Assembly: GCA_017309115.1 (NCBI GenBank)
Contig: JAFLEF010000018.1
Location: forward strand, 20,572-84,571
From: Verrucomicrobiota bacterium
Lineage (GTDB): Bacteria > Verrucomicrobiota > Verrucomicrobiia > Limisphaerales > UBA9464
DNA: 64,000 nucleotides
Reading direction: 5' to 3'
The notes under the pieces are model-generated. The model searched no databases and had not been told where the DNA came from. It saw only the letters and a program-made list of their open reading frames with translations. Below are positions 4,320 to 47,769 of this stretch, piece after piece (within the stretch, counting starts at the first letter, position 1; each line of letters begins with the position of its first letter). Both the position numbers and the translations under genes were made by a program.

Positions 4320-4464
4320 TAGCGACGTTTCAGGCTTTCCGAGTTGGTCCAACGTGCCCGTCCGTTTCGTCGGCGCTGCCGGGTCGGAAGTCACCTCACT
4401 TCACGACAAACTTCGGGTTATCCCGCTGTGATTTCCGCGCTCTGCTCTGTAATTTGGTGAAGTC

Positions 4465-5184
4465 ATGCCGGTTTTTGTCACCACGCATTGGTCCGTTGTC
4501 CTGGCGGCGTCCGACCGGGAGTCGCCCGATTCCACGGCGGCCTTGGAAGCTTTGTGCCGGACGTATTGGTTTCCCATCTACGGATTGGTGCGCCGGTGGG
4601 GGCATGGTCCGGAAGATGCCGAGGATCTCACCCAGGAGTTCTTTGCCCGGCTGTTGGGCCAGGACCAATTGCGGGCGGCGGACCGGGAGCAGGGACGGTT
4701 TCGAACGTTCCTACGGGTGGTTTTGCAACGGTTCCTGGCGAACCAACGGGAACGGTCCCGGGCCGAAAAACGGGGCGGCGGATTTCGGCGGGTTCCACTC
4801 GACACCTCGGTGGCCGAAGCACGATGGGAAGGGGCGGCGGAGTTGGGAAAGGGATTGGGCGCCGAAGCGGTCTTCGAACGGCAGTGGGCCTTCTCGCTGT
4901 TGGAGGAAGCCCTGAATCGGCTCCGGACGGATCACCTGGCCAGCGGCCGGGAAGCGGAGTTCCAACGGCTGAAGCCCTATTTGGCTTCGGAACGGGGGGA
5001 AATCCCCTATGCGGCGATCGCGTCGGACCTCGGCATCCGCGAAGGCGCCGCTCGCGTCGCGGTGCATCGGCTGCGAAAACGGTTTCGGGAGCTGTTCCGT
5101 GCCGCGGTAGCCGACACCGTGGCCGATCCTTCGGAGGTGGATGCCGAAGTTCGACACGTGGCGAGCCTGCTGGCAGGAGGTTGA
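4465..5184 (+). CDS. ECF-type sigma-70 family factor, kinase-associated (ECF43-like)
   Basis: TTHWSVVLAA motif, DAEDLTQEFFARLL (region 2-like) and SDLGIREGAARVAVHRLRKRFRELF (region 4 HTH). Followed after 51 nt by a second kinase gene. Confidence 0.8.
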   Translation: MPVFVTTHWSVVLAASDRESPDSTAALEALCRTYWFPIYGLVRRWGHGPEDAEDLTQEFFARLLGQDQLRAADREQGRFRTFLRVVLQRFLANQRERSRAEKRGGGFRRVPLDTSVAEARWEGAAELGKGLGAEAVFERQWAFSLLEEALNRLRTDHLASGREAEFQRLKPYLASERGEIPYAAIASDLGIREGAARVAVHRLRKRFRELFRAAVADTVADPSEVDAEVRHVASLLAGG

Positions 5185-31867: not shown

Positions 31868-33253
31868 TTGGTGACGACCTATGAAAAGTGCGTGACGTTC
31901 GCCGCAGAAACGCTCGAAAAAGCGCGGGTCAATTGTTCCCCCAAGCCACTTATAGGTGAAGGGTTGGATCGCTTCTGGGTCGAGACGGCCGATGCCCGGG
32001 ATGTCCACAGCAGTTTCCGGGACAACTTGGCAATTGTGCTCCAGGAAGAGGGAACTCCACGGGTACTCGTCCACGGCCATCGTGGTTGCGGCAAGAGCAC
32101 CGAGATCAACAAGTTCCTCTCCCAACTTGGATCCGAATGGCTGGTTGTTGCGTTGAGGGCTGACGATTTTCTCCCTCCCAGCGGCAATGAGGCTGCTGAC
32201 GTCCTGCTCGCCGCCTGTACCCGGTTGATGGACGTCGTCGCAGAGCAAAAATTGTCCCTCAACGAGGACCTCCTGAAGCCCGTCCTCGCCTTTTTTGCGG
32301 AGACGACTGCCGTCCAAACTGACGAGCGATCTAGCGAACTCCAGGCTGAGGCCGGAGCAGATGTTAGTACTGGCGTTTTGGGAAAACTCCTGGGTCTCAA
32401 AGCCAAGCTCGTTGCTTCGCTCAAGTTCGGGAGTCGTACCGAGCAAAGTACCATTCACCGCGTTCGTCGTCGCAAGGGCGAACTCTGCGCTGCTGTCAAT
32501 GCTCTCACCATTGCGGCTGAGAAGGCGTGGCAGGCTAAGAAAGGCAATCCCGCAGCTAAGCTTCTCCTAGTCATTGAGGAACTCGACAAGCTGGGGCTCG
32601 CCGATGCCCGCCAAATTTTTGTCCTCGATGGCCGCATCCTGAGTGAAGTCGCCGTCCGGGCGATCTACACCATTCCGGTCTTTACGTTCCATTCCGCCGA
32701 CGCCGGTGCCATCCGCAGCCACTTTGAACACGACTTGGCGCTGCCCATGATCAAGGTCTGCCAACCCGACGGTAAGCCTTGTGCCGAAGGACGAGACACA
32801 TTGAACCATCTGGTTCGCGAACGGGTTACTCCGTCCGTATTGCCGGAGGATGCACTTTCCTTGCTGATCGAACGAACCGGTGGCGTTTTGCGTGACATTT
32901 TTGAAGCCATCCAGACCGCCGCCCAATTCCGCACGGTGAGGTCCGAAGGGATCATCTCACGCGCGGCCATTGACCTCGCTTTGGAACGGATGGTCACGAC
33001 TCTCGGCTTGCAGATCGCCTACCCTCCGGAGGACCGCAAGGATCCAAAGATCCTCCAGGAGAAGTTGGCTGAGATCGCCCGGGCCCAGGCTGGCGGCCAA
33101 ACCAAGCGCGCCCAGCCGGATCCCGACCTCCAGCTTCTCCTCATGAGCGGCGCCCTTCTCGAATACAACGGCACCGGCTGGCTTGGGGTCCATCCACTCG
33201 CGCGCAAATATCTTCAAGATCTTGGCTACGATGTCGGCGCCATCTCTCCCTGA
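31868..33253 (+). CDS. P-loop NTPase (AAA+/STAND-like ATPase), 461 aa
   Basis: Walker A VHGHRGCGKSTEINKF and Walker B KLLLVIEELDKL, followed by about 200 aa of helical C-terminal region. The ORF opens with TTG/GTG (31868/31871). No other motif recognised. Confidence 0.65.
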   Translation: MVTTYEKCVTFAAETLEKARVNCSPKPLIGEGLDRFWVETADARDVHSSFRDNLAIVLQEEGTPRVLVHGHRGCGKSTEINKFLSQLGSEWLVVALRADDFLPPSGNEAADVLLAACTRLMDVVAEQKLSLNEDLLKPVLAFFAETTAVQTDERSSELQAEAGADVSTGVLGKLLGLKAKLVASLKFGSRTEQSTIHRVRRRKGELCAAVNALTIAAEKAWQAKKGNPAAKLLLVIEELDKLGLADARQIFVLDGRILSEVAVRAIYTIPVFTFHSADAGAIRSHFEHDLALPMIKVCQPDGKPCAEGRDTLNHLVRERVTPSVLPEDALSLLIERTGGVLRDIFEAIQTAAQFRTVRSEGIISRAAIDLALERMVTTLGLQIAYPPEDRKDPKILQEKLAEIARAQAGGQTKRAQPDPDLQLLLMSGALLEYNGTGWLGVHPLARKYLQDLGYDVGAISP

Positions 33254-35036
33254 TCTGCCTGAGTTGGCGGAATGTCTGGCGGCGCCCGTCCCAGGGCTTT
33301 TGCTACTCCGTTACGCCTCCGCCGTCGCTTTGGATCAATTGCTCTCTGGGTTGCGGAGCCGGATTGAACCGCGCCCGCTCCACGAGGTCCATTACGAGCC
33401 GCGTTCAAAGGAGTTGGGATATTGTCCGGAGTTGGTCGACCGGTGCCGCAGTCTGGCAAGCCCTAAGGTTCCCGCAATTTTTCTTCGGCCGGTGCCTGGA
33501 AACGTGGCGGAGGCTGACGTCTCGGCCGTGGTCACCTTCTGGAAGCAGCTGAATTCATTACGGGAAGCGATGGGGGATTTCTCTGCTCAGATCATCCTTT
33601 GCCTGGATGTTCCTCAGACTCCGTTTGCCTTTAGCCACGCGCGTGACCTGATTTCATGGTGCTCGCCTAAGTTCGAGTTTCTCGAGCTCACGCCCACGAC
33701 TGGAAGGGATGAGCCGACCACTTCTCGGGAAAACATGCGCAACGTCTCGGGAGGTGCCGCGATGCTGACCTGGAATTCCCTGAGCCCTCTCTGGCAGCAA
33801 ATTGTGGTCTCGGGTCAGGCTCCCAGTGCCACCGAAACCGTCCAGGTGCTCCTTCCGCTGCTACGCAGCGTGGTGGATTTGGGGATGGTCACGCTAGGAG
33901 CCCGGATCATTCGAGAAGGATCCACGGCCAAGTTCCCAAACGATTCGGCGATGGCGGAATGGTTAACCCTCTGCGGTGAGCTAGCCGTCGCACAGGGTGA
34001 TTTGGCTGGGGCTTTAAGCCGCTTTACGGAGAGCAAGGTAATTGGCGAACGCCTTGTAGCCAGCGACCCGGCCAATGCCGTATGGCGGCGCAATCTTTCC
34101 GTTTCGCTGGATCGGCTCGGCGACGTTGCATTGGCACAGGGTGATTTGGCCTTGGCCATGCGATGTTTCACGGAGAGTAGGAATATCAGGGAACTTCTTG
34201 TGGCTCGCGACCCGGCCAATACCGAATGGCAGCGCGGCCTTTCCGTCTCGCTGGATCGGCTCGGTGACATTGCGCTGGCACGGGGTGACTTGGCCTCGGC
34301 CATGCAATATTTCACGGAGAGTAAGACCATCGCCGAACGCCATGTGGTGAGCGATCCGGGCAATGCTTTATGGCAGAGCGACCTGTCCATATCTCTCAAC
34401 AAACTCGGTAATGTTAGCGAGGCGCAGGGTGATTTGGTAGGGGCTTTGCGATGCTTCAAGCAAAGTAGCTCGATCGCCGAGCGTATTGCGGCTAGCAACC
34501 CGGCAAATACCAAATTGCAGCGCGGGCTTTCCGTTTCGCTGAATAAGCTCGGTGACCTTGCAAAGTCACAGGGTGATTTCGCCGAGGCTTGGCGATGCTT
34601 TAAGGAAAGCAAGACGATCGCCGAGCGCCTTGCAGCCAGCGACCTAGCCAATGCCGAATGGCAGCGCGACCTGTCCGTCTCGCTGGACCGCCTTGGCGAC
34701 CTAGCGGAAGCACAGGGTGATTTGGCCGGGGCCTTGCGATGGTTCGAGGAGAGCAAGACCATCGCCGAGCGTCTTGCGACCAGAGAACCGGCCAATGCCG
34801 TTTGGAAGCGCGACCTTGGGGTGTCCTATTGGCATTTGGCGGGCCTGTGCGAGAAGTCTCATAACAAGGTCGAGGCATTGGTTTGGTGGCGGAAGGCCTA
34901 CGAGATACTCGCCAATCTGAAGCGGCGCGGCAGCCTCCGCCCCGTCGACGAGCGATTTCTGGCCACAGTTCAGGCCAAACTGGCCGACCAGCAACCGGGG
35001 GAATCTGGCGGTGTCCCCACATCGAGTGTCGGGTAG
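33231..35036 (+). CDS. TPR-like repeat protein with ~230-aa unassigned N-terminal domain
   Basis: Start taken at ATG 33231 (MSAPSLPDLPEL), overlapping the NTPase gene by 23 nt. The C-terminal two thirds contain six-plus 48-aa units of the form AQGDLAGAL.[CW]F.ESK.IAERL.A.DP.N..WQRDLSVSLD[RK]LGD. Confidence 0.75.
   Translation: MSAPSLPDLPELAECLAAPVPGLLLLRYASAVALDQLLSGLRSRIEPRPLHEVHYEPRSKELGYCPELVDRCRSLASPKVPAIFLRPVPGNVAEADVSAVVTFWKQLNSLREAMGDFSAQIILCLDVPQTPFAFSHARDLISWCSPKFEFLELTPTTGRDEPTTSRENMRNVSGGAAMLTWNSLSPLWQQIVVSGQAPSATETVQVLLPLLRSVVDLGMVTLGARIIREGSTAKFPNDSAMAEWLTLCGELAVAQGDLAGALSRFTESKVIGERLVASDPANAVWRRNLSVSLDRLGDVALAQGDLALAMRCFTESRNIRELLVARDPANTEWQRGLSVSLDRLGDIALARGDLASAMQYFTESKTIAERHVVSDPGNALWQSDLSISLNKLGNVSEAQGDLVGALRCFKQSSSIAERIAASNPANTKLQRGLSVSLNKLGDLAKSQGDFAEAWRCFKESKTIAERLAASDLANAEWQRDLSVSLDRLGDLAEAQGDLAGALRWFEESKTIAERLATREPANAVWKRDLGVSYWHLAGLCEKSHNKVEALVWWRKAYEILANLKRRGSLRPVDERFLATVQAKLADQQPGESGGVPTSSVG
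33990..34853 (+). repeat. Six in-frame 144-bp tandem units (coding repeat inside the TPR-like gene)
   Basis: The motif gcacagggtga (or a one-mismatch variant) recurs at 33990, 34134, 34278, 34422, 34566 and 34710, exactly 144 nt apart. Units are roughly 70-80% identical by eye. Confidence 0.9.
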
Positions 35037-35175: not shown

Positions 35176-35997
35176 ATGATTTTCGCCATTCATCGTCCCC
35201 GGCCGCCGCTGGAAGAACTCATCCAACAGTTCTGGTACTACGAAGGTCTGGACGTGCCGTACGATCGAGAACGGGTTCTGCCGGATGGTTCGTTCCATCT
35301 GATGTTTAATCTCAGCGACCAACCGCGTCGGTTGTTTGATCCATTGGACGACCGACGCATCCGGGACTTTCGCACGGCCTGGGTTTCTGGAGCCCACCGC
35401 GAATTCATCGTTATCGATGCTCAGGCGGGCTCCTCGTTGATTGGCGTTCAGTTCAAACCAGGAGGTGCCACCCGGTTCTTGGGCTTGCCAGCGACGGTGC
35501 TGCGGGACGATGTGCAGGAACTAGAGGCGGTCCTTCCGGGCGACTTGAGCGCTCTGCGGGATCGATTGCGGGACGGCGCCACCTCGGCGGCCAAGTTCGC
35601 AATACTGGAGGCATTCCTCCTTCAGCGGTGGGCAGCGGGACGCGCTGGGCATCCGTCAGTAGCGCATGCTTTGGAACGATTTCGTAAGTCTCCCCATTCG
35701 GTCACGGTGGATGCCGTGGCCCGCGAGGTCGGAGTTAGCCACAAGCATTTCATAGCCCGATTTGAGGCGGAAGTGGGAGTCACGCCGAAACGTTTCTGCC
35801 GGATCCGTCGGTTTCAGGGTGTGCTGGCGGCGATCGGTCGGAAGGCGTCAGTGGATTGGGCAGATCTAGCCTGCGCCTGTGGGTACTACGATCAGGCCCA
35901 CTTCATTCAGGAGTTCCGGGCGTTTTCAGGAATCAATCCGTCCACCTACCTTCGGGAACGAGGGGAGTATGTGGGTTATGTGCCGTTTCGGAAGTGA
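35176..35997 (+). CDS. AraC family transcriptional regulator
   Basis: C-terminal AraC HTH: VAREVGVSHKHFIARFEAEVGVTPKRFCRIRRF ... DLACACGYYDQAHFIQEFRAFSGINPSTY. Confidence 0.85.
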   Translation: MIFAIHRPRPPLEELIQQFWYYEGLDVPYDRERVLPDGSFHLMFNLSDQPRRLFDPLDDRRIRDFRTAWVSGAHREFIVIDAQAGSSLIGVQFKPGGATRFLGLPATVLRDDVQELEAVLPGDLSALRDRLRDGATSAAKFAILEAFLLQRWAAGRAGHPSVAHALERFRKSPHSVTVDAVAREVGVSHKHFIARFEAEVGVTPKRFCRIRRFQGVLAAIGRKASVDWADLACACGYYDQAHFIQEFRAFSGINPSTYLRERGEYVGYVPFRK

Positions 35998-36077
35998 GCG
36001 GCCTCGCAGCGGGTGGGGCAGAGGTAAAATTTTTCCAATCCCGGGCGGTGAGATCGGTGGAGACTCGACCCACATTT

Positions 36078-36485
36078 ATGAAGTTCGAACTGATTCAACC
36101 TGGAGCGGTGCTGGTGGCGGCGGTCTCGGTGTTTTTGGTCGGTGGTCTTTGGTATTCACCCCTGTTGTTCGGTCGGGCCTGGATGCGGGCCAATGGATTT
36201 ACCGAAGTGGACGTGGCGGACTTCAACAAGACTCGCACGTTCGGCGGTTCGGCAGTTTTGGCCCTGATCATGTCACTAAACTTGGCGGTGTTTCTGGCGG
36301 CCGAGGGGACGAACATGGTCTGGGGCGCGATGGCTGGGGCGCTTGCCGGATTAGGGTGGGTGGCAGCGGGTGGCGGCATCGTTGCCTTGTTTGAAAATCG
36401 CAGTTGGACTTATCTCGCCATCCACGCCGGATATCACCTGGTCTCCTTTTCGCTGATGGGGGCGATTTTGGGGGCCTGGCGCTGA
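36078..36485 (+). CDS. DUF1761 domain-containing membrane protein
   Basis: Start at ATG 36078 (MKFELIQPGAVLVAAVSVFLVGGLWYSPLLFGRAWMRANG). Four TM helices, 135 aa. The GGLWYSPLLFG..W motif is typical of DUF1761. Confidence 0.6.
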   Translation: MKFELIQPGAVLVAAVSVFLVGGLWYSPLLFGRAWMRANGFTEVDVADFNKTRTFGGSAVLALIMSLNLAVFLAAEGTNMVWGAMAGALAGLGWVAAGGGIVALFENRSWTYLAIHAGYHLVSFSLMGAILGAWR

Positions 36486-37184: not shown

Positions 37185-37329
37185 CAGATTACCTGGCACT
37201 CTATCGGAAGGCGCCCACGTCTGATGGCCTGGCACTCAAAACGAGTCACCAGTGATCGGTCGCCGTACAGATAGCCTGGCAATCTATATCCCGCGCGCTG
37301 GGTACCCCTCAGATTACCTGGCACTCTGT
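37185..37329 (+). repeat. Cluster of four REP-like 20-bp motifs (consensus CAGATTRCCTGGCACTCT)
   Basis: cagattacctggcactctat (37185-37204), ctgatggcctggcactcaaa (37221-37240), cagatagcctggcaatctat (37268-37287) and cagattacctggcactctgt (37310-37329). All are direct and lie just upstream of the transposase gene. Confidence 0.85.
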
Positions 37330-37392
37330 GGATTTGGCTCTCTAGGAGTCGTTAAATGTGGCGATGGTGGGGGAGCTTACGGCTGTGGTGGA

Positions 37393-38436
37393 ATGGGGGC
37401 CATGCGCCAACCTCGTTTTGACAAAGTTCCTGGAGTGGGGACCCACCACTTCCACTGCACCTCCCGGGTGGTCAATCGGGCGGAGATCTTCGGGGAGGAG
37501 GAGCGGGAGTACTTTGTGCTGCTCCTGCGTGAGTACGAAGCCTACTGCGGAGTGCGCGTACTCAACTACACCATCCTCTCCAACCACTTCCACCTGCTCC
37601 TGGAAGTGCCGCCCAAGCCCGAGAAGTTGCCCACGGCCGATGAGCTCATTGAACGGCTTAAGGGCCTGACGTCCACGACCCTGACGCCGAAGAAAGCCCG
37701 ACAACTAGTGGACGCGTTCCGCCAAGCCAAAGATGAGGAGGGAGAACGGGCCTGGGTGGAACGCCAATGCGAGGGGATGTGGAACCTGAGCGAATACATG
37801 AAGCGGCTCAAACAACGGCTGAGCCGGTGGTACAACCGCCGCAATAAGCGCAAAGGTACGTTGTGGGAGGAGCGCTTCGACAGCGTGCTGACCCAGGGAT
37901 GCCCGGAAGTGCTGCTGACCGTGTCCCTGTACATTGACCTCAATTCTTTTCGAGCCGGACTGGTAAAGGAACCGGAGAATTACCGCTGGAGTGGCTTGGG
38001 GGAAGCGATGGCGGGACAGCCGCGGGCGCTGCAGGGGTTACGGAAAGTGATCACCGGCGCGGAGCATTTGGGTGAGACCAGTACGGAGCTGACCCAGGCG
38101 TTGGAGACGTATCGGTTGCAGCTGTACGTCCGGAATGAGGAAGGGCGGGAAGGGACAGATGCCGAGGGACGTCCCTTGCGTCGGGGCCTGCCCCGCGCAC
38201 AGGTGCTGGATGTGTTGAAGAACAAGGGTCGGGTGAACCTGGTGGACTACGTGCAATTGAACATCCGGTACTTCTTTGATGGAGGGGTGCTGGGAACCCA
38301 GGAATTTGTGGAACAAGTGTTCCAAGCGTTCCCTGAACGTTTCGGCCCCAAGCGTCGCACGGGCGCCCGCCGCATGCGCGGACTCGCTCCCAAGTTGTAC
38401 ACGCTGCGCGATCTCCGGCTCGAGCTCTTCAGCTGA
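37393..38436 (+). CDS. HUH-Y1 transposase (IS200/IS605 TnpA-like; REP-associated tyrosine transposase, RAYT-like)
   Basis: HUH motif in SNHFHLLLEVPP. Downstream SLYIDLNSFRAGLVKEPENYRWSG matches the Y-containing helix and NP.RAGLV..P..Y.WSS pattern of the Y1 transposase family. Start taken at ATG 37393, because the longer track ORF would read through the REP copies. Confidence 0.7.
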   Translation: MGAMRQPRFDKVPGVGTHHFHCTSRVVNRAEIFGEEEREYFVLLLREYEAYCGVRVLNYTILSNHFHLLLEVPPKPEKLPTADELIERLKGLTSTTLTPKKARQLVDAFRQAKDEEGERAWVERQCEGMWNLSEYMKRLKQRLSRWYNRRNKRKGTLWEERFDSVLTQGCPEVLLTVSLYIDLNSFRAGLVKEPENYRWSGLGEAMAGQPRALQGLRKVITGAEHLGETSTELTQALETYRLQLYVRNEEGREGTDAEGRPLRRGLPRAQVLDVLKNKGRVNLVDYVQLNIRYFFDGGVLGTQEFVEQVFQAFPERFGPKRRTGARRMRGLAPKLYTLRDLRLELFS

Positions 38437-39022: not shown

Positions 39023-41959
39023 CTAGGCTTCGTTGAGAAGCAACGAGGCAAGCGCCTGCGCGGTGGCGGGGTGTGCGACGAGCAAAGGCGAGCCGATAGG
39101 TTCGCTTGGGGTGCCGATGACCGCCCTTGATTCTTCGCTTGTCGCCTCGTCCGCGGGTCGTTCGTCATGCCACTGCACCGGCTGTCCGAGCAGGCTGGCG
39201 AGGGCTTCGACCGTGCGGGGATAGGACCTCAGCAAGGCTTGGGCGCTGGGATTGCCTGAATTGGCTTTCGCACTCGCGGGGGATAGGGATTTGGCAGTAC
39301 TGGTGCTCGTCAGGCGCTGCTCCCAGGGAGGGTTCCAGCCCTCGAGGGAGGATAACGTGCGGGGAAAAACGTTGGCGGACTCCTTCAACAGCGTGGCGAG
39401 AGTGCCACTGGCTTGGGCATGCTCGCGCAGGCTCATGAGCAGGGCTGGCAACCACGGCATAAGAACCTCGTCGGGCAGCCAGGCGAAGGCTTTGCTCATC
39501 AGCTCCACAGTGAAGCTGCTCATGACGGGAGTGAAGGACAGCGAGAGCAGGAACCCGTTGAGCCAAGCGGGTAGCGTACCGAGGGCGACGGGGTTATCCA
39601 GCACCCGGTCAAACTGCTCACGCAAGCTGCTGAGGTTGCGCAGCTGGAGGACGCACTCGACCGACCACAGAAGGGCGAGTTTGACGGGATCCGTGGCGGT
39701 GAGCGCGGCTTGGCGTATGGCGATGATCAGCTCGCTGCGCTCGCAGCCGAGCGATAGTGCCAGGCTTTCCAACGTGAGGATGAACTGCAGCATGGCGGCG
39801 ACGTCAGCGGGCTTGGCGCTGCGGTCGTGAAAGGTTGTGGGCAGCAGCGAACAGTAGTGCGAGTAGCCTGTGGTCACGAAGTCGGCGCACCACTCCGGCA
39901 GGCGGGTGAAAGAACGGTAGTAGTGAATGAGCCGCGAGATTCGCGCGTAGATCGCGGCGGCGTCGCGCACATCGGGCTCGCTCACCAGCAGCGCTCGAGC
40001 TTGGGAACCGAGGTCGGTGACGAGGCGCTCGCTCTTTAAGAAGAGGATGGCCTGCTCCACGGCTTCCAGAGCATCGACCGTGCGCGCTGTTTCCGCGAAG
40101 GCTTTGCGGCGCAGACGCTGCTCGAGCACGAACTCAACTGTGATGCCCTCGTAGCCGAGTTGGATGATGCTGCCTTGGTAACGGCCGAGGGCGAGATCCC
40201 AGCTTTCTTGGTGCGGCGGCGCGGCACCCAGCTGGCGCTGGCCCATGATGGGCCGGACGACCTCGGCGGGTAGCAAGCACCGCAGTTTCCACAGCAAATC
40301 GGAGGCCGGCAGCCAATCCGGGTGCTTGGTGAAGTCGAGCAAGGCGCGCTGGACGTTGCGCGCCTCTAGCTGCACGGGCAGGAGACTAAGGCGGTCATAG
40401 ACATCGCGCGCTAGCGGCGGCATGGAGTCATAGCCGATACGCCCGATGCGGTCACCGCCGAGCAACTGGTCGCACAGGCGATTAATGTCGCGACGCTTGG
40501 GCACCTGGTCCTTCTCCAGGCAGGTGATCGCCGCATCGCGGAAGTCCCAGGGCGTGGGGTGGGCGCGATTGCGTAGGTGGCAGAGCAGCATGCTGGTTTG
40601 GTACACGGCGATGCTGTCCGCCGTGCTGGACATGTAGCCATGCTTGCGAGCGAGGGCGACGATGCCCGTGCACCAGCTAAGGAGGGTCTCCTGATCTTCG
40701 TCAGCAGTCGGCGGCGGCTGAGCCAGGAAGCCGAGCAATTGGCCTGTGCGGGAGGGCGGCAGGGAGGCGGGAATGGCGCGGGGCTTCTTCGCGGTGCTGG
40801 TACCCTGAGGGAGCTTCTCTCCCGGATCGGTCGCATCAGCCGGAGTGGACTTCTTCGGTAGCTTGAAAGCCGAGAGCCGGGCTTTCCGCAGCTCACTGCG
40901 CCAGCGGTCGTCGGCGATGCTAAGGCTGCCTGGGGGATGGCCGAACTGTCGCTCAATTGCGGCATAACTGCTGGGCAGCAGGCCGTAACGCCACTTCGTA
41001 CCACTGACCGGCGGGATGTCCCACAGCACCGAGCTCTCGGCGCCAAATTCGGGAACGCGGCTTACGGCGTGGGCTGCTCCGCAAATGTAGAGCGCCTCTT
41101 GGGGGCGTAGCCCATGGGCCGTTAGGTAGGACTTCATTCGCGTCCACATGAAGCGCTCGCGCAGCTCATCCTCAGCAATGTCTTCCTCCCGGCGTCCGAG
41201 GCGGCGGATGAGGCTGCCGACAAGGAAAAACACCTCACGGTAGTGGGCATAGTCTGAGCCGATGACCGGCGCTTCCACATACTGGTCCCACCACTCGCTA
41301 TAATGTGCCACGCGGGCATTGCGGAGCAGCACTTCGGTGAAGCTGCTGAGCGTCGGCAAGCTGGAGCCCAACTCCACACCTCGGGCATCGCCATGAGGGT
41401 GGGCGAGGGCCTCATCATCTTCAGCGGGCGCCTCGGCGACAGCCGCCTTCTGCTCGCTGGGTTTGGGCTTCCACTGGAACACGTGGTCGCTGCTTCGATC
41501 GACGAAAACCAGCTCCGTTCCTGGCTCCGTGAGGCCGAATAGGATGGCTTGATACTCCGCGGAGAATTCCGACAAAGGGCACACCAGATTGAGCGGAGCC
41601 CAGTCTGCGGGAAAACCTTCCGCCTCCGAGGCGAAGGCCTGTAGGGCCACCGGCAGTGTGCACTCTGCCAGGCCTGCGAGTAGTGGTCGCAGATCCTCGC
41701 AGCACTCCATGAAGATGACTCGCGGCGCGCGCTCTCGGAGGCGGCGCACCATGTGCACCGCCGATGACGGCGAGTGATGGCACACCGGGAAGATCTCCAA
41801 AGGCTCGCGCATCGCCCGCTCCACGTCGTCGACGAGACCGGCGAGAATGGTGGCGAGCGGTTGAGCATCCGTGGCGAAGGCTTCTGCCGCGACGCGAATC
41901 TGCGCGCGGAGCGCTTCGTGGGCAGCGAGAGGTACGGGGGGTGAGTTGGGGGAGGACAT
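39023..41959 (-). CDS. Large DUF5682-like (YehM-like) protein, ~978 aa
   Basis: N-terminal LEIFPVCHHSPSSAVHMVRRLRERAPRVIFMECCEDL resembles, from memory, the [R/C]HHSP...P.v[IL].E.p.D opening of the DUF5682/YehM family. Long helical C-terminal region. Start moved to ATG 41959 (MSSPNSPP), which has GAGAGG 10 nt upstream and lies 14 nt after the AAA+ gene stop. The track ORF start at 42025 would overlap that gene by 52 nt. Confidence 0.55.
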   Translation of the reverse strand: MSSPNSPPVPLAAHEALRAQIRVAAEAFATDAQPLATILAGLVDDVERAMREPLEIFPVCHHSPSSAVHMVRRLRERAPRVIFMECCEDLRPLLAGLAECTLPVALQAFASEAEGFPADWAPLNLVCPLSEFSAEYQAILFGLTEPGTELVFVDRSSDHVFQWKPKPSEQKAAVAEAPAEDDEALAHPHGDARGVELGSSLPTLSSFTEVLLRNARVAHYSEWWDQYVEAPVIGSDYAHYREVFFLVGSLIRRLGRREEDIAEDELRERFMWTRMKSYLTAHGLRPQEALYICGAAHAVSRVPEFGAESSVLWDIPPVSGTKWRYGLLPSSYAAIERQFGHPPGSLSIADDRWRSELRKARLSAFKLPKKSTPADATDPGEKLPQGTSTAKKPRAIPASLPPSRTGQLLGFLAQPPPTADEDQETLLSWCTGIVALARKHGYMSSTADSIAVYQTSMLLCHLRNRAHPTPWDFRDAAITCLEKDQVPKRRDINRLCDQLLGGDRIGRIGYDSMPPLARDVYDRLSLLPVQLEARNVQRALLDFTKHPDWLPASDLLWKLRCLLPAEVVRPIMGQRQLGAAPPHQESWDLALGRYQGSIIQLGYEGITVEFVLEQRLRRKAFAETARTVDALEAVEQAILFLKSERLVTDLGSQARALLVSEPDVRDAAAIYARISRLIHYYRSFTRLPEWCADFVTTGYSHYCSLLPTTFHDRSAKPADVAAMLQFILTLESLALSLGCERSELIIAIRQAALTATDPVKLALLWSVECVLQLRNLSSLREQFDRVLDNPVALGTLPAWLNGFLLSLSFTPVMSSFTVELMSKAFAWLPDEVLMPWLPALLMSLREHAQASGTLATLLKESANVFPRTLSSLEGWNPPWEQRLTSTSTAKSLSPASAKANSGNPSAQALLRSYPRTVEALASLLGQPVQWHDERPADEATSEESRAVIGTPSEPIGSPLLVAHPATAQALASLLLNEA

Positions 41960-41973
41960 GGCTAGTGTGCCTC

Positions 41974-43125
41974 TCACTTCATCGCTTCCAAGGTCTCGAT
42001 CCCGGCCTGGGCGAAGGCTTGCCAATCCCCTCCGGCTTTCTTGGCCTGCTTCTCGATAGCGCCGTGCCAGAACTTGCTGAGAATTGACACATCCTCCGGG
42101 ATGCGGCGCACGAGGGTGCCGATGACGCTGCGGGCCAGCGCCTCCGGCTCGAGCTGAGTGGCACCAAAAAAATTGCCATGCAGTACCGCATCCTCCAGGG
42201 CGCCGATTTGCTCGGCGGTGGAAAGACTGCTTTCCAAGCGGTTGTCTTCGCTCTCCTGACTGGCGGAGGTTTCGCGAAGATCGGCGAAGGTCTGCAGCAG
42301 GATGTCCAGCATGGCCGGCGGAACGCTGACTTCGAATTTGTTGCGAGCCAGCAGTTCGCGAACGCGAAAGAGCACGATCTCCTTCTCCGACTTCTTATTC
42401 GTTACCACCGGAATTTGTACGAAGTTGAACCGACGTTTGAGTGCGGTGGAGAGATCGTTCACGCCGCGGTCGCGGGCATTCGCAGTGGCGATGATGTTAA
42501 AGCCAGGCTGGGCGAAGACGACGTTGTCGCCCTTAAGCTCCGGGATGGTGACATACTTCTCCGACAGGATGGATATGAGCGCATCCTGCACATCACTGCT
42601 GCAGCGGGTGAGTTCCTCGAAGCGACCGGTCGCGCCCAGCTGCATGGCTGTCATGATGGGCGAGGGGATGAGACTGTTGCGCGACTGACCGGCCGCGATG
42701 ACCATGGCGACGTTCCACGAATACTTAATGTGATCCTCCGTAGTGCCGGCGGTGCCTTGCACAACGTACGTGCTGTTGCCGCAGATGGCGGCAGCGAGCA
42801 ACTCGGCCAGCCAGCTCTTGCCCGTGCCGGGGTCGCCAATCAGCAGCAGTCCTCGATCACTTGCGAGCGTCACGATGGCGCGCTCGACGGTGCGTGGGTC
42901 ACCGTAGAATTTCTGGACGATGGGACGCTCCAGTTTGTCCGCAGGCGTGCTGCCGAGGATGAAGGTGCGGATCATCTTGGGGGACAGCTGCCAGGTAAAG
43001 GGACGTGGCGCGGTATCAGCCGTCCGCAACCACGCCAGCTCTTCGGCGTATTTGATTTCAGCCGGCGCGCGCAGGATGGTGGCTGACACCGGGGCGGGTA
43101 CTTCGGATTTGGTGGCTTTGGACAT
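41974..43125 (-). CDS. MoxR-type AAA+ ATPase (AAA_5 / dynein-related subfamily; YehL-like)
   Basis: Walker A LLLIGDPGTGKSWLAE. Walker B/sensor region GRFEELTRCSSDVQDALISILSEKYVTIPEL. GFNIIATANARD. A single AAA module of 383 aa. Confidence 0.8.
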   Translation of the reverse strand: MSKATKSEVPAPVSATILRAPAEIKYAEELAWLRTADTAPRPFTWQLSPKMIRTFILGSTPADKLERPIVQKFYGDPRTVERAIVTLASDRGLLLIGDPGTGKSWLAELLAAAICGNSTYVVQGTAGTTEDHIKYSWNVAMVIAAGQSRNSLIPSPIMTAMQLGATGRFEELTRCSSDVQDALISILSEKYVTIPELKGDNVVFAQPGFNIIATANARDRGVNDLSTALKRRFNFVQIPVVTNKKSEKEIVLFRVRELLARNKFEVSVPPAMLDILLQTFADLRETSASQESEDNRLESSLSTAEQIGALEDAVLHGNFFGATQLEPEALARSVIGTLVRRIPEDVSILSKFWHGAIEKQAKKAGGDWQAFAQAGIETLEAMK

Positions 43126-43253
43126 GTCAGGGGAAGGGATTGGGCAGGCGATAAAAAGTGGTGAACTAAAGCGAAGTCTTGGATGGCTCAGGTGGGGCTC
43201 AGATTGGCGCCGAACTCGGCCAAACGTGCGGGTCTGAGGATGGCGGCATGGGG

Positions 43254-44699
43254 CTAGCGGCAGAGGTTCTTCTTTAGTTCAGCGATGAGCTTTTTGATGT
43301 TCCCGGTCAGGACGGGGCAGCCGATCTTCTTGAGTTCGTCTTTGAACCAGCCGTCGAGGGAGTAGTAGCCGGTGCCGGAGACGGAGGCGACCGGGAGGAA
43401 TTGAACGCCACTTTCCTTCACGGCTTTGATCATGGGCATCAGCTCGCGGCGTTCGTAGAAGTCTGAGATCCACACCATGGTGGTGCGTCGTGCGTCGGCG
43501 ATGTGGGCGCGGGCTTCGACCATTGCCAGCGGCCCATCATTGCCGCCGCCGAGGTTGGTGCGCATGAGCGCTTCAAAGGGATCATGGACCCAGGGCGTGA
43601 GGTCGATGACCGAGGTGTCGAACGCGATCAGCGTCACCTTGATGCGCGGCAGGCTGGCAAAGATGCTGGCGAGGATGGCGCACTGCGTCATGGCGTTGAC
43701 CATGGAGCCGCTCTGATCCACGACCACGATCAGGTAGTTGTTCAGCTCTTTCTGGGCTGTGTGGCGATAGTATAGGTCGTCCACATAGAGCTTGCCGTCG
43801 CCGGGGTTGTAGTTGGGCAGGTTCTTCCAGACCGTCCGCTTGAGGTCCAGATTTCGGAAGATACGGCGCGGTGGAACGGAACGGTCGATGCGGCCAGTGG
43901 AGCTGGAGAGCACTTGCTTGCGCAGAACCTCAGCGAGCGAATCCACATAGCGCCGCATCAAGGCGCGGGCGTGCTGGAGGGCCTTGCCGCTCAGCTTGCC
44001 TTTGAGATGCATGAGCTGCTCGGCCAAGGCCGCACTGGGCTGGAGGTTTGCGGCGAGGCCGTCTTGGCTAAGGACCTCCAGCAAGTCCATTCGCTGAATG
44101 ATGTCACTCTCCATGGCCTGCAGTTCGGCACGCAGCTGTTGGTCATCAATTAGTTCGCGGTTGCCACCAGGGCCACCACCAGGCCCGAGTCCTCCACCAG
44201 CGCTTCCGCTGCTCGTCCCTGCGCTGCCACTGCCGCGCAAGATGCCGGGCGCATAACCGAAGGCTTCCTCAAAGGCGGAGACATCAGCCAACCACTGGGT
44301 GTACTGCTGGGCGCTGCACTGTGGGGCTCGGGCGTTCGGGCCGAAGACATTGAGAAGGATCTTGGAAAAAACCAGCGTGCGAGCCGTGCTGATCGAGGTC
44401 GGATCTACCTGGGCAGTAGGAGTGATGGAATCAGTCGGATCACCCGCCGCTTCGGCAGTTCCCGCCCCGGCCGTCACCCGCGTGATGTCTGCAAAGTGGG
44501 GCCTCAGTCCAGGGTACCGCTTCTGCAGCACCTCCAGGCTCATGCCTGAATCCAGCAGCGCCAGCGGTAGGTTCTCACGATTCACGATCTCGGACACCTG
44601 ATCTTGGAAGCCTTTGATGAGCTCATCCTGGGCAAAGCAAGCACCGATCAACCGCCAGTAGCTGACTGCTCGTTCCTTTTGGGCAAGCGTTAGACTCAT
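43254..44699 (-). CDS. VWA domain-containing protein (CoxE/YehP-like)
   Basis: The C-terminal half carries a von Willebrand A fold with the MIDAS motif LIVVVDQSGSM, followed by T...IAFDT...GGGNDG. The N-terminal ~250 aa are helical and Gly-rich (GSGSAGTSSGSAGGGLGPGGGPGG). Confidence 0.75.
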   Translation of the reverse strand: MSLTLAQKERAVSYWRLIGACFAQDELIKGFQDQVSEIVNRENLPLALLDSGMSLEVLQKRYPGLRPHFADITRVTAGAGTAEAAGDPTDSITPTAQVDPTSISTARTLVFSKILLNVFGPNARAPQCSAQQYTQWLADVSAFEEAFGYAPGILRGSGSAGTSSGSAGGGLGPGGGPGGNRELIDDQQLRAELQAMESDIIQRMDLLEVLSQDGLAANLQPSAALAEQLMHLKGKLSGKALQHARALMRRYVDSLAEVLRKQVLSSSTGRIDRSVPPRRIFRNLDLKRTVWKNLPNYNPGDGKLYVDDLYYRHTAQKELNNYLIVVVDQSGSMVNAMTQCAILASIFASLPRIKVTLIAFDTSVIDLTPWVHDPFEALMRTNLGGGNDGPLAMVEARAHIADARRTTMVWISDFYERRELMPMIKAVKESGVQFLPVASVSGTGYYSLDGWFKDELKKIGCPVLTGNIKKLIAELKKNLCR

Positions 44700-46021
44700 G
44701 CGCGCAGCAGGCGCGAGGCCCGCTCCTCCAATTGGGATAGTGTTTCCGTCTTGAGCTTCGTCAGTCGGCCCGCGATGCCTTGGCCTAAGCGCAGGCCGGC
44801 CTTCAGCTTGCCACTGCCGCGGAGGGCTAGGGGTTGCAAACGCCAGCCTTCATCCCAGCGCAGGAGGGCGATCATGCCGGTGGTCGCGCCGAGTTGCTTT
44901 TCTTCGACCTCTGCCTGCAAGCCAGCGAGGCGGTCCAGGGCCAGCGGCAGCGCCACCGTGCCAATCTGCACCAGGCCGTCCGCAATGGTGCAGGCCTCGA
45001 TGCGCACCATTTCCGCGAGATGCACGGGGTGGCGAGCGGTCGCTCGCAGCGCGGGTACTGGTGCCCAGTCGGCCGCAAGCGCGAAGGGATCTGAAGGCCC
45101 TGCCAGCGATGCTTCGCCGTGCACCGTAAGGTCGCCCGCGCGGCTCAGTTCGGCTGCCTCCAGTGCCAGGGCTTTGCCCTCAGCCAGGGCTTTGAGAATG
45201 GGCTGTGCCACGCTCCCGAAGGCGCGCCAGACTTCGTCGGGTCCCAAGACGCTGACTTTCCACGAAGCAAATGGCCAGCGCACCACCTGCAGCTGCCCAT
45301 TTGTCTCCAACACGCCCCACAGGGTGGCGACCACGAACGACCGATGCGCTCGCACGTCCACACCACAGGGATGCAGCCGGCCACTGACGGTGCGGAAGGA
45401 GGGAGCCGAAGTGATGCCCTGTGCCCCGAGCATTGACGCGCACCACAGGTCGGTCCAGCGCCGTGCCGGCAACCCTGCCCGCTGCTTCTGCTGGAGCACC
45501 GCGATGAGCTCATCGCAGAAGCCTGCGAGCAACACCGCTTGATTGCACAGGCTCGCGCGGGCTTGCAGCTGAGCCTGCACCGAGGCGAAGGGCATCAAGT
45601 TGGCCTCAGTGAGATTCTGCAACCCGGCGACCGCCAACTCTGCCAGCCACTGCTGCACTCCGCCGAGCAGCGGGGCGTCATCACCGGTGGGCAGCAGATG
45701 AGTATCATCCTCGTCAGAAGTGGCGCCGTGCACTTGTTCGCGCAGGGCGTCGTAAGCGGCACCGAACAAAGCGCTGCGGCCCGCGGCAAGGCCAAGGCAA
45801 GCCGAAGCGGAGAACTCGGAGCGCTTCAGCCGCGAAACGGCATCGGCGACCAGTCCGCCCAATGGCGAGTGCGCGAGCGTGCCGGCCAGCGCGTCCAGAT
45901 CTTGCCGCAAGGCTTCGGGCAGGCGAGAGAGCCCAGTCATCAACGCGGCATCAACCGCGCCGGCTTGGGACAGTGCCTCACTAAGCCCGGCGGGTGGGGT
46001 TTGAAGAGAAGTGAAGTCCAT
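44696..46021 (-). CDS. Hypothetical protein, 441 aa, no recognisable motif (operon member)
   Basis: Long ORF with normal composition. Its stop overlaps the VWA start as ATGA (44696-44699), and it starts 49 nt after the SWIM-like gene. No catalytic or binding motif recognised by eye. Confidence 0.6.
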   Translation of the reverse strand: MDFTSLQTPPAGLSEALSQAGAVDAALMTGLSRLPEALRQDLDALAGTLAHSPLGGLVADAVSRLKRSEFSASACLGLAAGRSALFGAAYDALREQVHGATSDEDDTHLLPTGDDAPLLGGVQQWLAELAVAGLQNLTEANLMPFASVQAQLQARASLCNQAVLLAGFCDELIAVLQQKQRAGLPARRWTDLWCASMLGAQGITSAPSFRTVSGRLHPCGVDVRAHRSFVVATLWGVLETNGQLQVVRWPFASWKVSVLGPDEVWRAFGSVAQPILKALAEGKALALEAAELSRAGDLTVHGEASLAGPSDPFALAADWAPVPALRATARHPVHLAEMVRIEACTIADGLVQIGTVALPLALDRLAGLQAEVEEKQLGATTGMIALLRWDEGWRLQPLALRGSGKLKAGLRLGQGIAGRLTKLKTETLSQLEERASRLLRA

Positions 46022-46070
46022 GAATCTCGGCTGGAAACGGATTCGCTGAAGCGGTGCCGCTGGGAGGTCC

Positions 46071-46523
46071 CTAAAACCAATTCATCTCGGGCACGAAACG
46101 CTGCGGCGCCCGCAGCGCTGTGAGGCGCAGGTAGTCAAGGAAGCGGCTGAAAATCACGGCCACGTTGTCTTTCACCTGCGTGCCCTTCAGACCCATGAGG
46201 TGGGTCATCGCGGTGGCCCCTGGTTCCGCGCCGAGGATCGCGAGCACAGATTCCTCCCCGTACTCCTCCACAGCCTCCTCCACGAGTTCGCAGATATGCT
46301 TGCAGGGCGAGCCGCGCAAGCCGCCGCAGGGACGGTTGTTATTGGTACTGCAGGAGTAGTGGCCCGTGCTCAGTTCTATGAAGGAAACATAGACTCGCTC
46401 GATGTCAGAGCCGCTCGATACTACGCCTTGAATTCGACCTTCGCGGATCTCCACAAAGGGAACCTTCTTGACCGCTCGTTTCCCGCTAAACACCGGCGAA
46501 GGGAGGAAGCTCAGGCGCGACAT
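46071..46523 (-). CDS. Small SWIM-like zinc-finger protein (150 aa)
   Basis: HYSCSTNNNRPCGGLRGSPCKHICELV gives a C-x7-C-x7-C-x-H arrangement followed by a helix, like a SWIM finger but without the canonical CxC. Start taken at ATG 46523 (MSRLSFLP), because the 91 upstream codons of the track ORF are Arg-rich and look non-coding. Confidence 0.55.
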   Translation of the reverse strand: MSRLSFLPSPVFSGKRAVKKVPFVEIREGRIQGVVSSGSDIERVYVSFIELSTGHYSCSTNNNRPCGGLRGSPCKHICELVEEAVEEYGEESVLAILGAEPGATAMTHLMGLKGTQVKDNVAVIFSRFLDYLRLTALRAPQRFVPEMNWF

Positions 46524-46773
46524 GCGAGCGATGGTGAATGCCTGCCCCGCAGCAGGCGAATGGATTTTGCTCCTGGCGATCCTGACCTTGGAGACCCGCT
46601 GGCAAAGTAGCCTGCCGCGAAGCGGGGGTGATCGCCTCGAGTCCCGGAAAGGTCGCTGGTCTAGCATTCGGATCACGCGTGGTGCCGGTTTCGGGGCGTC
46701 GCGGATTCGATTGCCTCGCCGCGAGTCCGGTTTTGAGCTGGAAACGGGCCGGTTCCTTCCCAAGCCTCGCGCC

Positions 46774-47769
46774 GTGGCATCACGTGTGTTCTGCATCGCT
46801 GACGATCGGCCGTCAGCGGAGACCGGCCTGCGGGTCCTGCTGGTCTCGCTGGCTCAGCACGAAAAAACTACGCCCACAGTTCTCTATCGACCCGGCAGTT
46901 CTCCGGAATTCGCCGAGTGGTGCCGCCAATGGAGTTGGTTGGAAATCGTTCCGGAACGACCGGCCGGGGGATTCGAATGGAACTGCAAACCACAGGCCCT
47001 GCGCCCCCTGCTCGCTCGCGGTTTCGATGAGGCGGTCTGGCTGGACTCGGATCTGATGCTCCAAACGCCTCTGGCTCGGGTGCTCGATGGACTCCCCACT
47101 GAAACCCTTGCAGTGACTCAGGATTCCCGGGCGACGAACAAAGGCGAGTTTACTCTGGAAGCCCGAACCCGCGCCTGGAACTGGCCTCTGCACCGGGCCC
47201 CGATGGATCCTATCAACACCTGCTTAATCCGGGTCACCGCGGCGCATCGGCCGCTCCTGACCCGTTGGGAAGAGGCCATGAATGAGCCACGCTATGTGGA
47301 CTGGGCCCGCCAGCCGGTCGGCAAACGCCCGCCCTACTTCACCAGTGATCAGGACGTCCTGATGGCGCTCCTGGGCGGCCCCGAATTTGGTTCGCTGCCC
47401 CTGCGGGTTTTGCCGACGGGATCGGCGGTGCTGCACTGTGCCGGGCTGCGCTCGTTTACCTGGAGCGAGCGATGGCGGGCGACCACCCAGGGCCCAGCGC
47501 CGTTGGTTCATGCCACTACCGATAAGCCCTGGATTGTCTTGTCGCCTCGCTTTGGCCGCGGCCGGCGAGAGCGGTTAACCCAGCTGGCCCACGAATTGTC
47601 ACCGTACGTCGTGGCCGCCCGAACCCTGCGAACGCGTTTGGGACAGCCAGCGCCATGGCTGGAGTTTCGCACTCCGTTGGGTCGACTCCTCGGGCTGTTG
47701 GGGTGGGCGAGTCCAGGCTTGGCTGGCGGTCCACTCACATTGGCGGCGTCCCTCACTTCCCGCCGGTAA
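46774..47769 (+). CDS. Putative glycosyltransferase-like (GT8-like nucleotide-diphospho-sugar transferase fold) protein
   Basis: VFCIADDRPSAETGLRVLLVSL opening strand and a VWLDSDLML (DxD-like) motif. The track ORF (from 46468) would overlap the SWIM gene, so I place the start at in-frame GTG 46774. The start is uncertain and the family call is tentative. Confidence 0.4.
   Translation: MASRVFCIADDRPSAETGLRVLLVSLAQHEKTTPTVLYRPGSSPEFAEWCRQWSWLEIVPERPAGGFEWNCKPQALRPLLARGFDEAVWLDSDLMLQTPLARVLDGLPTETLAVTQDSRATNKGEFTLEARTRAWNWPLHRAPMDPINTCLIRVTAAHRPLLTRWEEAMNEPRYVDWARQPVGKRPPYFTSDQDVLMALLGGPEFGSLPLRVLPTGSAVLHCAGLRSFTWSERWRATTQGPAPLVHATTDKPWIVLSPRFGRGRRERLTQLAHELSPYVVAARTLRTRLGQPAPWLEFRTPLGRLLGLLGWASPGLAGGPLTLAASLTSRR

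Follow-up and report, generated by a model that had tools for sequence, protein, structure and literature searches.

MoxR-class AAA+ ATPases that form rings and adjoin a protein with a VWA domain and a metal ion-dependent adhesion site (MIDAS) are known from several chaperone pairs (viz. NorQ-NorD, CbbQ-CbbO, CoxD-CoxE, and RavA-ViaA) and from eukaryotic midasin/Rea1, with which the operon described below shares these two components. The vWA-MoxR ternary systems proposed computationally by Kaur et al. are likewise built on a MoxR-vWA core with extra conserved parts and are biased to large-genome, multicellular lineages; a term search of that paper found no 'Yeh' (PMC7159879). The yehLMPQ cluster of Escherichia coli has no assigned function; DUF5682, the family of YehM, is not mentioned in the literature that we searched, where the yehLMPQ genes occur only in gene lists, and a study of Hha/H-NS and the silencing of horizontally acquired genes names yehL and yehM (PMC3686432). 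In the present work, we describe a five-gene operon from a Verrucomicrobiota bacterium (GenBank assembly GCA_017309115.1), located in a stretch of 64,000 nucleotides (nt) of contig JAFLEF010000018.1 that is referred to as the window. The operon, hereafter the cassette, encodes a small protein with a candidate zinc (Zn) knuckle, a protein of 441 amino acids (aa) termed U441, a VWA protein, a MoxR-class AAA+ ATPase, and a DUF5682 protein. It is a variant of the MoxR-VWA systems within the uncharacterised yehLMP/DUF5682 group and, judged by sequence comparison, belongs to the same superfamily as YehL, YehM, and YehP of E. coli.

A five-gene cassette conserved across phyla

At least seven bacterial phyla have the cassette in nearly the same form. 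When species-representative genomes were scanned with a DUF5682 profile, at least 565 matches were obtained for this subfamily alone, and the best 80 loci, which come from six phyla (viz. Verrucomicrobiota, Planctomycetota, Cyanobacteriota, Myxococcota, Chloroflexota, and Actinomycetota), were annotated with phmmer. All five genes are present in the same order in ~72 of these 80 loci, and because of this shared order the arrangement is far beyond chance. Most of the exceptions are truncated contigs; one component was undetected by phmmer in L014, L015, L033, L063, and L065. The same five genes are also found on a Bacteroidota plasmid, pFA9 of Fulvitalea axinellae, where RefSeq records them as hypothetical, hypothetical, VWA, AAA, and DUF5682. 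Operons of this DUF5682/YehM MoxR-VWA kind are common, more than 2,200 DUF5682 homologues having been scored, and those listed show at least 49% identity.

The order small gene, U441-like, VWA_CoxE, AAA_5, and DUF5682 is conserved in Actinorhabdospora, in Paludisphaera, and in metagenome-assembled genomes (MAGs) of Verrucomicrobiota, Polyangiaceae, and Chloroflexota, while the flanks of the cassette are wholly different between these five organisms. Since the order is conserved and the flanks are unrelated, the cassette is a strongly constrained, self-contained unit. The AAA+ and VWA genes are neighbours in almost every locus, and the U441 gene always adjoins the small gene. Cross-phylum identity to the window proteins is ~70% for the ATPase, ~50% for both the DUF5682 and the VWA protein, ~47% for the small protein, and ~32% for U441, which is the most variable, fast-evolving subunit; in alignments of 79–83 sequences, the motifs of the ATPase and the MIDAS hardly vary. 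Among the matches listed, the closest homologues of the window proteins are from Verrucomicrobiota MAGs. A cytochrome P450 gene (L007, 9286-9999) separates AAA from DUF5682 in the cassette of one Chloroflexota MAG, which is standard in all other respects.

In the window the cassette occupies positions 39023-46523 on the minus strand, as determined from a check of the open reading frames (ORFs) and their translations, and its co-directional genes are separated by a 49-nt spacer, a 4-nt ATGA overlap, and spacers of 128 nt and 14 nt (Table 1). The GC content of the window is ~62%. Pfam assigns three of the five proteins, viz. to DUF5682 (PF18934, E 2e-27, above the gathering score), AAA_5 (E 8e-37), and VWA_CoxE (E 7e-24), and has no family for U441 or the 150-aa protein; NCBIfam gave sub-threshold matches only for the cassette proteins. 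A preliminary description of this DNA, made by eye from its sequence, had pointed to five tightly packed minus-strand genes with these spacings, to their standing as a self-contained unit, and to the motifs GDPGTGKS, DQSGS, and VCHHSP...VIFMECCED. The ORF coordinates, the co-occurrence of the five families in a fixed order, and the hidden Markov model (HMM) matches agree with that account, and the motifs are present in the translations and near-invariant in the 80 related loci.

Table 1. Positions of the cassette genes and adjacent features in the 64,000-nt window.
Feature	Position	Strand	Remarks
Small Zn-knuckle (SWIM-like) protein	46071-46523	-	150 aa; maximal ORF extends to 46796
U441	44696-46021	-	441 aa; ORF and translation
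VWA_CoxE protein	43254-44699	-	481 aa; Pfam and YehP match
MoxR-class AAA+ ATPase (AAA_5, YehL-like)	41974-43125	-	383 aa; single module
DUF5682 (YehM-like) protein	39023-41959	-	978 aa from ATG; maximal TTG ORF extends to 42025
Intergenic region, presumed operon promoter	46524-46800	-	common to divergent plus-strand ORF
Accessory-looking ORFs past the 3' end of the cassette	37252-38436, 31868-33253, 33183-35036, 35176-35997, 35856-36485	+	none recurs beside the cassette in other genomes

Sequence scans of the presumed promoter region of the window found no sigma-70-like promoter, PafBC motif, inverted repeat, or LexA-like box. A perfect 14-bp palindrome, TCGTTCCGGAACGA, lies at 46946-46959, ~430 nt upstream of the small gene and in or near the divergent plus-strand ORF. 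The 3' side of the cassette is accessory-looking, with an IS200-like Y1 transposase (RAYT-like), an AAA_16 NTPase followed by a TPR protein, an AraC/DUF6597 regulator, and a DUF1761 protein, and none of these genes recurs beside the cassette in other genomes.

The encoded proteins and a second cassette type

The ATPase is a clear homologue of E. coli YehL, with 42% identity over 365 aa (BLASTP, E 1e-90) and a profile match of 1.3e-86. Its Walker A motif GDPGTGKS, Walker-B-like motif RFEELT, sensor residue N216, and arginines R231/R232 are near-invariant in the 80 loci. The nearest solved relatives by sequence are the AAA modules of midasin, followed by McrB, and there is weak similarity to CobS-like and GvpN ATPases. 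The adjoining VWA protein is 31% identical to YehP (E 6e-43). Its VWA domain is C-terminal, the Pfam match reaching residue 441 of 481, and contains a MIDAS (D328-Q-S-G-S332 plus D413) that is invariant in 79 homologues, while the N-terminal ~190 aa, which include a Gly/Ser-rich stretch, fall outside the YehP and VWA matches. No solved relative of this protein was detectable by sequence. With its intact AAA+ motifs (Walker A/B, sensor, and Arg finger) and an adjoining gene for a MIDAS-bearing VWA protein, the ATPase belongs by sequence to a MoxR-VWA pair, which is the core recognised in the preliminary description and which Pfam, the near-invariant motifs, and the adjoining genes all uphold. 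In PHROGs the cassette matches a YehP-like VWA family and generic ATPases; the former, phrog_31592, is phage-derived, of unknown function and of YehP-like length, and matches the VWA protein at 1e-36.

Between the DUF5682 protein and YehM the pairwise match is weak, but the family profile finds YehM clearly (3.5e-14), and the two share 30 invariant columns. An AlphaFold2 (AF2) model (predicted local distance difference test, pLDDT, 81.8) places a long N-terminal helix before an alpha/beta domain (~55-360), which is followed by a disordered linker, helical or mixed regions, a helical solenoid (~595-870), and a C-terminal tail of low confidence. A cluster of invariant polar residues in the alpha/beta domain (H61, H62, S63, E85, D89, E135, D154, E229, D236, R267, E268, and H297) has the look of a catalytic or metal-binding site, and these residues, together with M271, C293, and G294, are invariant even in YehM. 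A whole-chain Foldseek search against the PDB gave weak matches to HEAT/ARM-like helical repeats only, and sequence searches found no relative of solved structure. The N-terminus weakly matches phrog_30700 (3.7e-4), though the phage genome collections searched gave no DUF5682 match.

The motifs of the alpha/beta domain follow an order (HHSP, a Glu ~24 residues later, RERFMW ~180 later, and GAAH ~27 later) that resembles that of TraB/GumN/Tiki proteins, and the corresponding motifs read from the sequence of YbaP (TraB/GumN) are GSIH, VEAD, QRNLAW, and VGALH. With profiles broadened by seven diverse TraB/GumN proteins from plasmids and by DUF5682 sequences of the YehM type, the two families were aligned by hhalign with E 0.0019 and an HH-suite probability of 14%, confidently only over the R..GxxH half ('RERFMWTRM..CGAAHA' with 'QRNLAWRGKL..VGALHL'). 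Low-diversity hhalign, Pfam, PDB sequence, and TraB-HMM searches for this link were all negative, and the resemblance to a TraB/GumN active site is suggestive only.

The small protein has candidate Zn ligands at C58, C66, C74, and H76, within the motif 'YSCSTNNNRPCGG..CKH', and a conserved C-terminal 'VFSRFL..L...E..WF'. An exhaustive search of a representative library found 254 relatives, and no solved relative was found by sequence. The SWIM-like assignment of the preliminary description is not borne out beyond a resemblance of motifs. The resemblance of the motif to that of YehQ is apparent side by side ('AQCSCGANGMCRHRVMLV' in YehQ and 'YSCSTNNNRPCGGLRGSPCKHICELV' in the small protein), but the ligand spacing is C-x7-C-x7-C-x-H and not CxCxnCxH ('CSTNNNRPCGG..CKH' against 'CSCGANGMCRH' in YehQ), Pfam SWIM (PF04434) gave no match at E<=10 in three members of the family, and the hhalign alignment of 'PCGG..CKH' with the YehQ SWIM core 'SCGANGMCRH' is non-significant (E 0.24). 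A SWIM variant in which the second cysteine is displaced is a plausible description of this motif. In two homologues (P0169 and P0173) the cysteine ligands are lost ('SSTNNNRSDAGT..DKRI') and the remainder of the protein is kept; because such homologues exist, Zn binding may not be essential in every lineage of the family.

U441 has no match in Pfam, NCBIfam, PADLOC, or PHROGs, in agreement with its earlier listing as a protein with no motif, and no solved relative was found by sequence. Its AF2 model (pLDDT 87.6, predicted template modelling score 0.86) consists of a helical N-terminal domain (~1-200) and a beta-rich C-terminal half. The Foldseek comparison called for in the preliminary description for U441 and the DUF5682 protein yielded for U441 nothing significant in the PDB, the best E being 0.04 with scattered low-probability OB-fold matches. 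Natural fusions join the Zn-knuckle to U441 (P0152) and WGR to the Zn-knuckle and U441 (P0147), and because of these fusions the small protein and U441 are likely to form one functional unit.

A second cassette type was found when metagenomes were scanned with one BRCT-pentapeptide-Zn-knuckle protein (e.g., L098, 7881-17030); in it, one or more genes for such proteins immediately precede those for U441-like, AAA_5, DUF5682, and VWA_CoxE proteins. Its middle protein of ~370-450 aa is a distant U441 homologue in the same position (hhalign E 1.1e-4 over 282 columns), and its Zn-knuckle core is 42-50% identical to that of the window cassette over ~60 aa. The same five modules are present in both types. 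The second type differs in that its core has the yehLMP order, its DUF5682 and VWA proteins are of the shorter YehM/YehP type, and its Zn-knuckle makes up the C-terminal domain in large proteins with BRCT and pentapeptide repeats, often as two to three tandem paralogues. Two to three tandem, divergent Zn-knuckle genes lie upstream of the AAA-DUF5682-VWA core in four metagenome contigs (L093, L119, L137, and L138), which suggests that these paralogues may act as interchangeable adaptors. In view of the fusions and the second cassette type, the Zn-knuckle is a recurrent partner module of the YehL/M/P-type core.

A possible link to DNA damage and the rival readings

The region of 350 nt upstream of the first cassette gene was scanned on the coding strand for the motifs of known damage regulons. 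The consensus of PafBC-dependent (RecA-NDp) promoters is given as tGTCgg(N10)tA(N3)T (PMC8635444) and also as tTGTCRgtg-8nt-TannnT (PMC5656591). Of 50 actinobacterial loci, 17 carry a strict form of this motif and 29, from 12 genera, a relaxed form; of 265 control regions that lie upstream of further ORFs at these loci, none has the strict form and 2 have the relaxed form. The background is low, with three strict matches in 2.93 Mb and 1.76 relaxed matches expected in the upstream set. Fisher's test gives P = 2e-15 (strict) and P = 3e-25 (relaxed), values that overstate the independence of the loci because these are interrelated. LexA-box patterns of the actinobacterial, Gram-positive, cyanobacterial, gamma-proteobacterial, and Verrucomicrobia types were absent upstream of the cassette. 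When shared k-mers were sought de novo by phylum, only a block specific for Isosphaeraceae, TACTGTTCAATAGTCCA, emerged; it lies at about -75 from the small gene in L005, L012, and L057, preceded by a CTTGA(T/C) element in upstream regions that have otherwise diverged, and it may be a promoter or an operator.

Further indications come from the domains and genes with which relatives of the cassette are associated. The Zn-knuckle core is found fused to U441, to WGR and U441, and at the C-terminus of the BRCT and pentapeptide-repeat proteins noted above. In other proteins, WGR and BRCT domains function in connection with DNA damage, and pentapeptide repeats are able to mimic DNA. In Deinococcus, DdrO controls the induction of the WGR protein DR2173 and the DUF4132 protein DRA0166 by mitomycin C (PMC8533742), and a SWIM protein of D. 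deserti, with more than 10-fold induction by radiation, is among the most induced genes (PMC5552922). In E. coli K-12, a LexA-like box, AACTGGATAAAATTACAGGG (CTGG-N8-ACAG; L089, ~4448-4467), is located just before the start of yehF and thus heads the yehF-yehH-yehI-yehK-yehLMPQ cluster, which agrees with the statement that molR belongs to the LexA regulon (PMC8533742).

Because of the PafBC-type promoter in Actinomycetota, the WGR and BRCT fusions of the Zn-knuckle, and the damage-induced SWIM, WGR, and DUF4132 relatives, we propose a DNA-damage role. Our preferred reading, which we regard as plausible though short of probable, is that the cassette encodes a DNA-damage-linked, five-subunit MoxR-VWA remodelling machine. 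The YehL-like AAA+ protein would be the motor ring, and the VWA protein would use the metal site of its MIDAS to couple the ring to a partner, on the pattern of NorQD, CbbQO, and midasin. The helical solenoid of the DUF5682 protein may serve as a scaffold, its His/Glu/Asp/Arg cluster in the alpha/beta domain being possibly a catalytic or metal-binding output, and the target would be chosen by the Zn-knuckle protein together with U441, as an adaptor or sensor. The machine would act on damaged DNA or on DNA-bound proteins. The gene set and its conservation, the intact ATPase and MIDAS motifs, the enrichment of the promoter motif, and the domain fusions are observed; we infer the formation of a complex, these subunit roles, a DNA-related target, and also damage induction in the Verrucomicrobiota organism from which the window comes.

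Several observations weigh against this proposal, in addition to the interrelatedness of the actinobacterial loci. The promoter evidence is a match to a sequence motif and comes from Actinomycetota only, motif and k-mer scans having found no damage-related motif upstream of the cassette either in the window or outside Actinomycetota, and the PafBC regulon also holds genes unrelated to repair. No domain for repair or nucleic-acid binding has been demonstrated in any of the subunits, and the OB-fold hints for U441 are non-significant. WGR and BRCT occur in relatives and not in the window cassette, beside which no WGR or DUF4132 neighbours were found, and the Deinococcus and molR cases concern related domain families and not established orthologues of the cassette. 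Moreover, the characterised MoxR-VWA pairs mostly mature metalloenzymes. A broader form of the proposal, in which the cassette and its yehLMP-type relatives together constitute an unrecognised, widespread bacterial machine of the DNA-damage response, we consider possible but rather doubtful. In this form, adaptors (the Zn-knuckle and U441, with WGR or BRCT-pentapeptide parts in relatives) would guide the MoxR AAA+/VWA motor to damage in DNA or to trapped DNA-bound proteins, and the motor would remodel, extract, or process the target, possibly by a TraB/Tiki-like metallohydrolase site in DUF5682, in a manner likened to the eukaryotic AAA+-assisted clearance of DNA-protein complexes.

Defence, maturation of a metallo-client, and an ATP-coupled hydrolase are live rivals to the damage-linked reading. 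The first of these, an anti-phage or conflict system, had been favoured in the preliminary description and would consist of a vWA-MoxR switch that detects an invader by way of its Zn-knuckle/U441 part and then releases a toxic or abortive-infection output, possibly from the enzyme-like DUF5682 domain. The phyletic pattern of the vWA-MoxR ternary systems of Kaur et al. (actinobacteria, cyanobacteria, planctomycetes, chloroflexi, and delta-proteobacteria) matches that of the cassette (PMC7159879), and the rapid evolution of U441, the two to three divergent Zn-knuckle adaptor paralogues of the second cassette type, and the accessory-looking neighbourhood in the window (IS200-like Y1 transposase and NTPase-TPR pair) are consistent with a conflict role, which a DNA-damage-responsive promoter would also suit. 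Type I restriction-modification (R-M) genes within ~10 kb of the cassette at two loci point the same way, as does the naming of yehL and yehM in the study of Hha/H-NS silencing. However, PADLOC (PADLOC-DB v2) gave a marginal mad8 match to the ATPase (E 1e-4, 19.9 bits) and nothing for the other four proteins. Searches of 50,697 phage genomes and of IMG/VR gave no DUF5682 match, and the 6 plasmid records that matched, out of 72,556, are mostly multi-megabase actinobacterial replicons. For 120 proteins that flank the cassette at 16 loci, no Pfam family recurs in more than two, the PADLOC matches are generic kinases or ATPases, and the flanks hold metabolic genes without clear defence content. 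Pfam found no VMAP, iSTAND, FtsH, beta-propeller, or bpMoxR third component at threshold, and no variable effector domain is fused to the VWA protein, whose length and sequence are conserved across phyla (~50% identity). The earlier remark that no nuclease, protease, pore, or other effector was recognisable is likewise confirmed by the family searches. The very high conservation and fixed architecture are also unlike those of diversifying conflict systems. The results of these searches weaken the defence reading, which we now consider unlikely.

The R-M genes were seen in two organisms only, a Verrucomicrobiota MAG (L003/L008, 99-6565), in which a HigB toxin gene and thrS lie between the R-M genes and the cassette, and F. 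axinellae (pFA9; L090, 19031-21911).

A chaperone for maturation or cofactor insertion, serving an unlinked metalloenzyme or large complex in the manner of CoxD-CoxE, NorQ-NorD, CbbQ-CbbO, or the chelatase trio, appears quite improbable. Two accounts describe the characterised MoxR-VWA pairs as inserting metals or remodelling enzymes (PMC9976466, PMC13036017), and the yeh-adjacent gene molR was first described by a molybdate-utilisation phenotype (reference 69 cited in PMC8533742). The DUF5682 protein would, on this explanation, be a metal- or cofactor-handling large subunit comparable to that of the chelatase trio (small AAA+, VWA, and large subunit), and its invariant His/Glu/Asp cluster could bind metal. 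The membership of the VWA protein in the CoxE family, the weak similarity of the ATPase to CobS-like and GvpN ATPases, and a degree of conservation that fits a housekeeping-type machine are also in its favour. Nevertheless, no client gene is conserved beside the cassette in ~85 loci, whereas the known MoxR-VWA maturases normally adjoin their client gene. The patchy distribution of the cassette weighs against a universal client, and the PafBC promoter and the WGR/BRCT links of the Zn-knuckle are left unexplained.

We give little credence to an ATP-driven proteolytic or peptide-processing machine, suited to damage or defence, in which the AAA+/VWA pair feeds or activates a TraB/GumN/Tiki-like metallohydrolase at the DUF5682 N-terminus: the order and spacing of its motifs, the broadened hhalign match over the R..GxxH motifs, and a predicted secondary structure in which they fall on a helix and at the ends of strands speak for it, but the N-terminal motifs are out of register in an alignment of low probability, the remaining sequence and HMM searches were negative, and whole-chain Foldseek gave no such match.

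Comparison with yehLMPQ and other MoxR-VWA systems

If the damage-linked reading is true, the cassette would represent a new class of ATP-driven bacterial genome-maintenance machinery and would provide a functional context for yehLMPQ and molR in E. coli, and the PafBC result provides a testable hypothesis, viz. damage induction in Actinomycetota. If the cassette serves defence or maturation instead, its strictly conserved architecture is still tractable for structural and genetic work. Two protein families free of annotation, U441 and the Zn-knuckle protein, are now recognised.

The cassette differs from the MoxR-VWA chaperone pairs in the addition of DUF5682, U441, and the Zn-knuckle protein as obligatory subunits, in having no adjoining gene for a client enzyme, and in its DNA-damage-type promoter in one phylum. 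The systems of Kaur et al. have a VMAP, iSTAND, FtsH, or beta-propeller part and variable effectors C-terminal on the vWA protein, none of which was found in the cassette by Pfam, and they are diversifying, whereas the cassette subunits are all strongly conserved.

The likeness to E. coli yehLMPQ that the preliminary description proposed holds for three genes. The ATPase, the VWA protein, and the DUF5682 protein are homologous to YehL, YehP, and YehM by BLASTP or profile, and in both clusters the genes are co-directional and tightly packed and include a Zn-binding C..CxH partner. It does not extend to YehQ, the gene order, or the WGR/DUF4132 neighbours. YehQ is a protein of 614 aa with a canonical CxC..CxH SWIM motif, to which the small protein and U441 show no detectable similarity. 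The possibility that these two represent a split YehQ found no support in BLASTP, family HMM, and hhalign comparisons, and homology is unproven. The order here is Zn-knuckle, U441, VWA, AAA, DUF5682, as compared with AAA, DUF5682, VWA, SWIM in E. coli, and the DUF5682 protein of the cassette is ~220 aa longer than YehM. The E. coli cluster adjoins the WGR and DUF4132 genes yehF, yehH/molR, and yehI; the cassette lacks such neighbours, and no homologues of YehF, YehI, or YehQ (WGR, DUF4132) were found within ~8 kb in the related loci L002-L090. The family now has a defined five-module composition in at least two cassette types, with which yehLMPQ shares the three core genes.

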